The notes beneath the pieces were generated by a model. The model was not told where the DNA came from and did not search any database. It saw nothing but the letters and a program-made list of their open reading frames with translations. Made by a program: the position numbers and the translations under genes. This document shows positions 37,095 to 38,780 of a stretch of DNA of 64,000 nt, in pieces (position 1 is the first letter of the stretch; the number at the start of each line of letters is the position of its first letter). The stretch covers positions 64,001 through 128,000 of the forward strand of contig OZ244170.1 of assembly GCA_965216565.1 (NCBI GenBank), given 5' to 3'. The DNA comes from Bythopirellula sp. (GTDB taxonomy: Bacteria > Planctomycetota > Planctomycetia > Pirellulales > Lacipirellulaceae).

Positions 37095-37400
37095 TCAGTT
37101 CTGACTAAAGTCAAGGTGAGGAGCCGACGAGCGGGCAAGCGGATTTTGAACGTAACGCTTGCGGCATTCGCCACACAAATCGAAACGGCGATGATGGTAG
37201 ACATCGTCGCAAATCTGCGGGTCCTCGGCATCGTCTAACCGTTCAAGAATATCTTGGATCTCTTGGAGGTGATCGCGGTCGTCGTTGAGTTCTTCTTCAG
37301 CGGGATCGAGCGACGCATACACTTCTAACCGTACGACGTATCGAAGTTCACTTTCTGGATCGATGGAACGTTTACAAGAATCGCACGTGTAGTGAATCAT
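37095..37400 (-). CDS. Small acidic zinc-ribbon protein
   Basis: MIHYTCDSCK...FDLCGECR; AGGAG RBS before ATG 37400. Confidence 0.8.
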   Translation of the reverse strand: MIHYTCDSCKRSIDPESELRYVVRLEVYASLDPAEEELNDDRDHLQEIQDILERLDDAEDPQICDDVYHHRRFDLCGECRKRYVQNPLARSSAPHLDFSQN

Positions 37401-37804
37401 TACGACAACTCCTAAGACCATCAAAAAAACAGCATACTGATGATATGAATTCCCTCCACACCATTTCTTCATCCTAGCGACAAACGATAACCAGGGGCAA
37501 GAGAAACTTTATTGAGATTTCTTTCGTTTAGAATCGCAGAAAAAAACAAAGTAGACGCAAGCAAACGGTATGCCCACGGACGCAAAAAGCCAGTCTTCAA
37601 CTCTTCGCAAACTTTTCGAAACATTGATGGAGTAGTTACGCCTCGTAAAATGCGTAAAGTTCGAAGTGTCTGGCTGAAGAAATGCCTAAATATGCAGATA
37701 TCCCGCTAATTCTTGCTAAAACCGAACGTTTAGGATTTCATTGAATGCTTTGCTGCGCGAATTCTTAGCTGGTTTTGTCTTCCACTCGGAGATAGAATGA
37801 AGGT

Positions 37805-38081
37805 AGTCGCCGAGCAGGCAACAGAAGGAGTGGTGTTTTCACCCGCTCTGGTGAAAATGCCAATGCTCCGAGACTCGGTCGGCAGGTACGCATTGCCGTT
37901 ACCCGCCAGGCAATGTCTGAGATCCAAGTTGAATTTTTCCGTGCTCAGTTCGTATGATCACAAAGCACGGGAAAGCGTCTTGGTCTACAGACGCGTCTAG
38001 GGTAACCCTTGCAATGCGTCCTTTGGTTTGTGCCTATTGGATTTGGCAACCATGCATTTGGGACTCGAGGGGACTCACTAG
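37805..38081 (+). ncRNA. Candidate structured leader/ncRNA upstream of HNH endonuclease
   Basis: At least five hairpins with +strand G-U pairs plus an alternative long-range pairing; TAGAAT -10 at 37793-37798. Confidence 0.5.
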
Positions 38082-38714
38082 ATGTCAGCCGCAACTTCCA
38101 CTGCGTTAAACTCAAGCGTTTTAGTCTTAAACCGTCAATATATGGCGGTACATGTGGTCGGTGTTCGCCGTGCCTTTGGCTTGCTAATCAACCAAATGGC
38201 TGAAGTGATTCACATCGAAGATGGCCAATACGGCAACTATGATTTCAACTCATGGCGAGAAGTAAGTGAGTTGAAGGCCGAGTTCAAACAGCCCAGCGAT
38301 GACTGGATTCGCAGCGTAAACTTCGAAGTTTGCGTGCCACGTGTGCTGCGGTTGCTCTATTACGATCGTCTACCCAAGCAGCGAGTTCGTCTCAACCGGC
38401 GAAACATCTTTGCTCGCGATACGAATATGTGCCAATACTGCGGAAAGAAGTTCTCCACAAGCGAATTAAGTTTGGATCACGTGATGCCCACTTGCCGGGG
38501 CGGTGGAACCAGTTGGGAAAACTTGGTCTGTGCCTGCGTAAAGTGCAACGTACGCAAGGGTGGCAGAACGCCAAAAGAAGCAGGCATGAAGCTTATCAAG
38601 AAACCGATTCGGCCAAAGCGCAGTCCGATGCTCACAGTAAAACTTGGTAACCCCAAGTACGCGAGCTGGAAAACGTTTCTCGACTCGGCTTACTGGTCGG
38701 TTGATCTAAAGTAG
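38082..38714 (+). CDS. HNH endonuclease (McrA-like, VLVLN N-terminus)
   Basis: RRNIFARD...CQYCG...LDHVMP..RGG..SWENLVCAC.KCN.RKG. Confidence 0.93.
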   Translation: MSAATSTALNSSVLVLNRQYMAVHVVGVRRAFGLLINQMAEVIHIEDGQYGNYDFNSWREVSELKAEFKQPSDDWIRSVNFEVCVPRVLRLLYYDRLPKQRVRLNRRNIFARDTNMCQYCGKKFSTSELSLDHVMPTCRGGGTSWENLVCACVKCNVRKGGRTPKEAGMKLIKKPIRPKRSPMLTVKLGNPKYASWKTFLDSAYWSVDLK

Positions 38715-38780
38715 CGAGTTTCGAGTTGTGAGATACAAGTTCTTAGACTCGCAACTCACAACCCGTTGTTCGCAACTCGT
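38715..38780. repeat. Inverted heptamer arrays (CGAGTTG / CAACTCG) between convergent genes
   Basis: gcgagtt tcgagtt gtgagat ... actcgca actcaca ... tcgcaactcg; can fold as a long hairpin. Confidence 0.55.

Follow-up and report, generated by a model that had tools for sequence, protein, structure and literature searches.

A gene for a 210-aa HNH nuclease in the window (the whole 64,000-nt stretch of DNA analysed here) stands behind a long predicted 5′ leader, and the question is whether this leader is a functional RNA and, if so, whether it serves the nuclease as a scaffold or guide, or controls the nuclease gene in cis. Both roles had been proposed in a sequence-only reading, which placed an undescribed structured RNA between the promoter and the HNH start. 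The structured RNA stands: the leader matches no Rfam family, its promoter is conserved, and part of it covaries. It contains a real, uncatalogued and narrowly distributed motif in front of an IshB-type core gene, which is neither HEARO nor 6S RNA; of the two proposed roles the cis-regulatory one is the best reading, and the leader is probably not a guide. The features referred to below are:

37095..37472, reverse strand: divergent gene for a small Cys-rich protein of no Pfam or NCBIfam family, bounding the intergenic region
37769..37798, forward strand: conserved sigma-70-type promoter (CTGGTTT, 17 nt, TAGAAT), with predicted transcription start at about 37805
37805 (approximate predicted start) to the HNH start at 38082, forward strand: predicted 5′ leader, 277 nt
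37806..37883, forward strand: P1, a 5′ hairpin domain in which 37810-14/37874-78 closes 37827-43/37850-69
37850..38000, forward strand: candidate upstream ORF, with GGTGA at 37850-54 inside P1, ATG at 37857 or 37863, and stop TAG at 37998-38000
37884..38022, forward strand: window-specific rod of 139 nt, followed by TTTGGTTT (38022-29)
37890..37916, forward strand: P2, a conserved 8-bp hairpin with an 11-nt C-rich loop, GTTACCCGCCA (consensus RYDWCCYGCCW)
37915..37992, forward strand: P3, a long imperfect hairpin directly after P2
38024..38085, forward strand: two weak 3′ hairpins
38082..38714, forward strand: 210-aa IshB-type protein, with a PLMP-like domain (11-100), a zinc-binding HNH domain (about 101-180) and no RuvC

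Promoter and leader

The −10 box TAGAAT is present at 37793-37798, as the sequence-only reading had it. CTGGTTT-17-TAGAAT or a near variant precedes nearly all orthologues of the nuclease gene in the same layout, and 135 of 146 leaders scored above the cut-off of a promoter matrix (a score that is partly circular, because the matrix was trained on these same leaders); in all 135 the second letter of the upstream box is T and the fourth is G. Within the genome the strict pattern is unique, and the promoter was on that account rejected as the signature of a regulon. The distance from promoter to start codon ranges from about 40 to more than 400 nt among orthologues (n = 135: below 100 nt in 42 leaders, 100-199 nt in 23, and at least 200 nt in 70). 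The divergent Cys-rich neighbour is present in 104 of the 107 orthologue loci that have enough flank; homology among these proteins begins only around residue 20, which makes a start downstream of the first ATG probable. A GG-N10-GC sigma-54-type promoter faces this gene at 37561-37575 (reverse strand), and many relatives have a similar word, judged by eye. The 16 nt at 37652-37667, ahead of the nuclease promoter, recur with one mismatch inside the nuclease gene (38314-38329), which may be chance.

The leader folds better than shuffled sequence: for 37800-38085 (286 nt) the minimum free energy is −115.7 kcal/mol (z −4.32), and none of 200 shuffles was as low. The reverse strand of the same 286 nt gave z −4.12; since the minus strand folds comparably, folding energy alone cannot fix the strand of the RNA. 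Within its own genome the folding strength of the leader is unusual, not unique: z ≤ −4.3 was reached by 4 of 173 same-length ORF-free stretches upstream of genes (sampled from 699 candidates, with 15 shuffles each). Taken alone, P1 has z −2.65, P2 −2.05, P3 −5.11, the rod (37884-38022) −7.59, and the last 70 nt, with the two weak hairpins, −0.15, which is no better than shuffles; the rod, private to the window, thus supplies much of the fold stability of this leader. The second of the weak hairpins contains the ribosome-binding site GAGGGG (38067-72) and the HNH ATG. All the stems listed in the sequence-only reading exist where it placed them, but not all of them can form together: P2 is exclusive with the rod, and 37975-80/37989-94 competes with the base of P3.

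The whole of the roughly 280 nt had been taken for one RNA, and as a conserved unit it dissolves on comparison, with only P2/P3 shared, in 14 of 120 family genomes, and nearly a third of leaders (42 of 135) too short to hold it. BLAST of the leader found no significant relative outside the coding part in 27 genomes of the genus and 120 of the family; no word common to 31 leader clades rose above the null; and no terminator, U-tract or 3′ end is conserved across leaders, with no forward-strand terminator predicted. Only 4 of the 33 leaders in the first set folded reached z ≤ −2.9. In L007, L119 and the leaders of genus g37 the corresponding stretch is likewise closed by a 5′ hairpin (by eye and from folds), which resembles P1 in shape and is unrelated to it in its letters; no alignable P1 sequence was found in relatives. 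Copies of the leader as a repeat or MITE were found nowhere else in its own genome, and a dispersed element is ruled out, since the leader is single there and the motif matches outside the family sit in ORFs. Contigs from four DNA sequencing runs yielded no informative leader variants. At the other end of the nuclease gene, an imperfect 31-nt inverted repeat (38710-38777) lies between the convergent nuclease and ferredoxin genes, either REP-like or a two-way terminator.

A covarying motif in three genera

When all leaders were compared with one another, that of the window was linked to 14 others, which come from three genera and from metagenomes. In the carriers P2 lies about 100-130 nt past the predicted transcription start, its loop includes CCCGCC, and a long hairpin follows in all. 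Among 14 aligned sequences, 98% of the P2 cells are paired and 3 of the 8 pairs changed on both sides; in P3, 7 of 14 pairs did so, the changes being largely between g37 sequences, to which the P3 of the window aligns poorly. For P2 and P3 together (10 of 22 pairs changed on both sides), structure-wide covariation exceeds 498 of 500 column shuffles (2 of 500 reach the score) and all slid controls, in a shuffle that ignores relatedness, with 10 of the 14 rows from one genus and the structure drawn from the same sequences. Covariation among orthologues, on which the sequence-only reading hung, is therefore found for P2/P3, but the leader as a whole is not conserved.

Several observations bear on selection. 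Between the window and its relatives 19-22 of the 27 P2 bases are kept where four-fold sites are 29-37% identical, and across ten P2 variants 79 of 80 stem cells are paired, which argues for purifying selection on P2. Third positions are fixed in P2 although synonymous sites are saturated, and the loop letters are conserved beyond the needs of pairing. One P2 pair shows the series C-G, U-G, U-A; intermediates that are G-U, not A-C, fit an RNA read from the forward strand. A sigma-54 site inside P2 was considered and rejected, since the spacing in the sequence is GG-N9-GC and not N10. Leaders of about 80 nt without an SD (L088, L190, L192, L193, L206, L226-L228, L232) have in common a GCCTGCC/GGCAGG stem, some 25 nt ahead of the start, that has the stem letters of P2 and a free loop; a CTGCC/GGCAG stem (8 short g27 leaders) was not accepted as a family-wide word, being a post hoc find that counts as one event.

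The motif is found in 14 of the 120 family genomes, which are 14 of the 112 that bear the gene, and in three genera (10 of 14 genomes in g37, 2 of 2 in g18, and 2 of 27 in the window's genus). It always lies on the forward strand, between the promoter and the start of the same gene, once per genome. A covariance model, R1 (E ≤ 0.05), gave matches in 25 of the 120 family genomes: the 12 strong matches are all in HNH leaders (11 of them from training genomes), two held-out weak matches also fall in HNH leaders, and the other 12 weak matches (11 genomes) have no HNH gene near and look like chance. R1 was silent at 10 IscB loci and at 16 HNH loci outside the family. The exact 25-letter pattern occurs 14 times in 185,579 genomes, 8 times in HNH leaders and 6 times in unrelated sequence, the matches outside the family lying in ORFs, and it was not found in viral contigs. 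One record titled as a gammaproteobacterium (L267) has a planctomycete-type locus, with an 88% identical protein and the motif, and is probably mislabelled or mis-binned. In a quick protein tree the main split of a 54-row clade (support 99) has carriers on either side of it, a pattern suggesting that P2/P3 is ancestral and that most genomes of the window's genus have lost or replaced it.

The nuclease gene

The HNH domain is well marked (Pfam HNH_5, PF14279, 60.5 bits on the 210-aa protein). Its residues H133, N147, and N156 are invariant in 87 homologues, and both CxxC pairs are intact; with activity predicted on these grounds, a reason for tight control would exist. A RuvC domain is absent, as had been noted: IscB and Cas9 models match only residues 104-168, guided_IscB scores 43.3 bits against a cut-off of 175 and on the HNH part only, which excludes a RuvC plus HNH effector, and a second structure model (pLDDT 94.6) has two domains for the 210 aa. 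The sequence-only reading went on to say that no PLMP segment was visible and that the protein was unrelated to OMEGA proteins, and here it was mistaken. Aligned by hhalign, the 87 N-termini match those of 12 planctomycete IscB proteins (probability 75.5, E 2.4e-5, score 27.8, 33 columns; 40 column shuffles scored at most 13.6 and the reversed control 8.5). In two fold searches (48,161 chains), residues 11-100 match, among the matches listed, only PLMP domains, those of two IscB structures and one IsrB structure, with modest Z of 4.5-5.4 and rmsd 1.7-3.1 over about 50 residues (9k2z, Z 5.4/4.5, rmsd 1.7/1.9, 48/49 aligned; 8dmb, 5.2/4.7; 9k30, 4.9/4.6). Pfam leaves the N-terminal half blank, RRXRR giving no score on it, and Foldseek and sequence searches of the PDB returned the HNH part only. 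On profile and model comparison, the N-terminal domain is PLMP-like and the protein has the layout of IshB, PLMP plus HNH without RuvC.

The gene is present in 112 of the 120 family genomes (one copy in 110 of the 112), in each of 16 further families sampled from the order, and, in a profile search, in 120 of 151 genomes of the phylum. Proteins at 90-93% identity are known from close relatives. No transposase was found among the flanking ORFs and no element ends were seen; downstream, ferredoxin and ECF sigma genes are each present in 25 of 42 loci. Single copy, a fixed divergent neighbour and the lack of a transposase point to an IshB-type architecture, not a mobile IshB, and by its sequence and distribution the gene is best described as a domesticated, single-copy IshB-type core gene. 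Two homologues (P0131 and P0161) are interrupted at a shared site, immediately ahead of the first zinc cysteine pair, by an insertion of more than 300 residues that looks intein-like by eye. The protein may be akin to rice WSL9. IshB was reportedly first presented by Altae-Tran in 2021, in a study whose supplements may already list this protein family as IshB.

Alternative folds and upstream reading frames

Alternative folds are predicted in silico for the window and for some relatives. In the window, P2 is replaced when its 5′ strand and loop pair with 38000-38022: the resulting rod is the predicted minimum-energy fold, the pair probability of P2 in it is 0.00, and forcing P2 costs 9.6 kcal/mol. 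The rod in this form was not seen in relatives. The P2 loop of the window can pair with GGGTAAC (38000-06), a pairing that extends into the rod; in the g37 leaders and L119 a loop partner, GGCGGG, lies 37-60 nt before the start in the same register, and it is absent in L007, L054, L052, and L201. A downstream partner gives no clear gain over shuffles in any of 16 leaders (fraction as good 0.07-1.0), and its pairs show no change on both sides (in g37 pairing is possible in 95% of cells). A pseudoknot between the P2 loop and the downstream GGCGGG in g37 was rejected on these grounds, and from the sequences loop-partner pairing is only a lead. With ribosomes simulated at various positions on the window folds, the opening of the HNH SD changes little (0.56-0.72 unpaired).

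The candidate upstream ORF would encode 47 or 45 aa, with anti-SD pairing of −6.6/−7.4 kcal/mol; the corresponding value at the HNH start is −7.5. The window, L007, and L119 all have an SD-led start, at +58 to +60, and the latter two have a stronger SD site at the same offset, opening a 3-codon ORF; the ORF is not common to most motif carriers, and most g37 leaders are without an SD-led start. P2 itself reads ALPRPAWQ in one frame, which is open across P2 in 15 of 16 carriers, and 7 of the 18 variants in this frame are synonymous and 11 are not (28% synonymous expected). Starts, stops, and frame vary among the carriers, non-triplet indels follow P2 in 5 of 10 g37 leaders, and L164 has a stop codon in the P2 frame that preserves the base pair, all of which argues that the hairpin is selected as RNA.

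A conserved start, frame, and stop beside a terminator, as in a leader-peptide attenuator, were not found among the carriers and were found in part in g19 and g1c. In g19 (L041, L168, L175, L182, L186) there is a conserved ATG with a peptide start MxSExGPxH...W and an ORF of 69-83 aa, which in 4 of the 5 leaders overlaps the HNH start out of frame, the HNH start there having no SD. In g1c (L020, L021, L022, L032) a strong SD stands just after the predicted transcription start, and in 3 of 4 leaders TTG comes next and opens an 18-codon frame for a basic peptide. That sister clades carry different devices at this position fits a locus under repeated post-transcriptional control; overall, promoter and gene stay fixed, and the leader between them is often rebuilt yet repeatedly holds control devices.

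Function of the leader

We consider it most likely, with a probability of about 0.55, that the leader acts in cis, keeping the synthesis of the nuclease low or conditional; it evolves fast, probably switches folds, and is probably coupled in part to upstream translation. Transcription would start near 37805, and P2 would fold first, to be displaced later in this genome by 38000-38022, which may nucleate on the P2 loop (GTTACCC with GGGTAAC). A ribosome on the upstream ORF (37863-38000), the speed of transcription, or a protein bound to the RNA (the PLMP domain of the nuclease is one possibility) could decide between the folds, and the fold adopted would govern either read-through at the U-rich stretch or start-codon accessibility. 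As expected of a cis-acting leader, covarying structure is found 5′ of one gene family, in three genera. Against a role in cis stand the lack of a conserved expression platform, with pairing partners that neither exceed chance nor covary, and the 98 of 112 gene-bearing family genomes that are without the motif.

The PLMP-like domain might itself bind P2/P3, whether to feed back on its own message or within a ribonucleoprotein for which the leader would serve as a domesticated omega-like scaffold, and this we hold to be unlikely, if worth weighing. The N-terminus does match PLMP domains of IscB and IsrB, PLMP contacts the omega RNA in IscB structures (PMC10734217, in part), the P2 loop is kept beyond pairing needs, and in this phylum HEARO, the omega RNA of IscB (Rfam RF02033; PMC9755519, in part), lies at the same position upstream of IscB, with 223-288 nt. 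But RF02033, which matches 7 of 10 control IscB loci, has no match at E ≤ 10 in the window or in 10 motif-bearing homologue loci, R1 has no match at IscB loci, the motif is missing upstream of proteins 77-88% identical, many of which stand behind leaders of less than 100 nt, and the 31 leader clades share no word beyond the null. There is also no target-like match for the leader in its own genome or in phages, and no bridge helix, RuvC, or sign of mobility, which together with the missing HEARO match speaks against the scaffold or guide of the sequence-only reading. A wider form is just as tentative: a domesticated, phylum-wide IshB nuclease whose PLMP domain still binds its own leader RNA, each lineage with its own ligand, so that P2/P3 would be the first identified IshB-type RNA partner and a relic of, or precursor to, the contact between omega RNA and PLMP.

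A small RNA derived from the leader, whose C-rich P2 loop pairs with G-rich sites of other messages in trans, is slightly less probable: the promoter is strong and conserved, CCCGCC is invariant and single-stranded, the window's rod ends at a U-rich stretch, and other clades have their own C-rich loops at the locus (by eye), but no terminator or 3′ end is conserved, the motif is never found away from the HNH gene, and the sole antisense lead, an 18-nt complement to the neighbouring ECF sigma gene that appears across species, failed in each carrier's own genome and was rejected. We give the same low weight to selection on a leader peptide, translated through P2 in the LPxPAWQ frame, or on an attenuator that senses ribosomes, with the hairpin secondary. 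The open frame over P2, the SD-led starts of the window, L007, and L119, and the upstream ORFs of g19 and g1c speak for it; 7 synonymous variants of 18 are no clear excess over 28%, however, and neither the variable starts and stops, the indels after P2, and the mostly missing SD-led starts in g37, nor the pair-preserving stop of L164 and the fixed third positions suit a selected peptide. Least probable of all is a slowly decaying long UTR in which P2 is a stabilising hairpin or a relic without regulatory role and the rod a chance rearrangement. The few strongly folded leaders (4 of 33), the absence of the motif from 25 of the 27 genomes of the window's genus, and the 4 of 173 upstream stretches that fold as well would suit it, but it sits badly with the purifying selection on P2 (19-22 of 27 bases kept against 29-37% four-fold identity, and 79 of 80 stem cells paired).

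Even if the leader should act in cis and nothing more, it is an uncatalogued RNA motif of narrow range. The IshB-type gene, near-universal and single-copy in planctomycetes, has a defined promoter and, in genera with cultured members, a leader hairpin that covaries; it offers a concrete protein-RNA pair, and precise mutations, to probe PLMP-RNA binding outside transposons and to ask how such a nuclease is held in check.

Comparison with known systems

Rfam recognises only a tRNA in the window, with chance matches at the locus and in 10 homologue loci. The largely open-access literature covered on planctomycete structured RNAs, 6S RNA, HNH, and IshB (PMC7354284 and PMC2864571 among it) holds no description of the leader RNA. 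SRP RNA was rejected, the genome having its own SRP RNA elsewhere. 6S RNA (RF00013) is reported absent in Pirellula and Rhodopirellula (PMC5673643, in part), and the Rfam 6S model found it in none of six Pirellulales-type genomes (G000, G018, G040, G043, G118, G119). The window leader can, like 6S RNA, form a long irregular rod, but this rod is of 139 nt, private to the genome, and without a 6S-type central bubble or an RF00013 score; the relatives fold into separate hairpins, and a 6S identity was rejected.

HEARO shares with the leader its place 5′ of a PLMP-domain HNH gene, a length of 250-300 nt, and several hairpins. The two differ in that no covariance model matches in either direction, the leader motif is held by a small subset of orthologues, and guide targets are lacking, whereas on the protein side the window's nuclease differs from IscB in having neither a RuvC domain nor an arginine-rich helix. 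Cis-regulatory leaders and attenuators typically combine a long leader, a fixed promoter, mutually exclusive folds, and an upstream ORF. The region before the HNH start differs from these in that no conserved terminator, anti-SD, or leader peptide emerged across carriers and no Rfam family applies; it shares the long leader, the fixed promoter, the exclusive folds, and a candidate upstream ORF.

IshB consists of PLMP and HNH, with about 180 aa and no RuvC (PMC10734217, PMC11610941, both in part), is discussed as an early, possibly RNA-targeting state toward IscB and Cas9 (PMC13284715, in part), and in the literature covered is described by prediction only. The gene in the window departs from it in being a core gene kept in synteny and in single copy (present in 112 of the 120 family genomes and 120 of the 151 from the phylum), with no signs of a mobile element; its protein has MAVH instead of the PLMP motif letters and a 45-residue insertion in that domain, and its upstream RNA is not HEARO. 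The likeness to IshB nonetheless extends over a PLMP-like N-terminus, an HNH domain with zinc ligands, the absence of RuvC, a similar size, and a structured non-coding stretch upstream.
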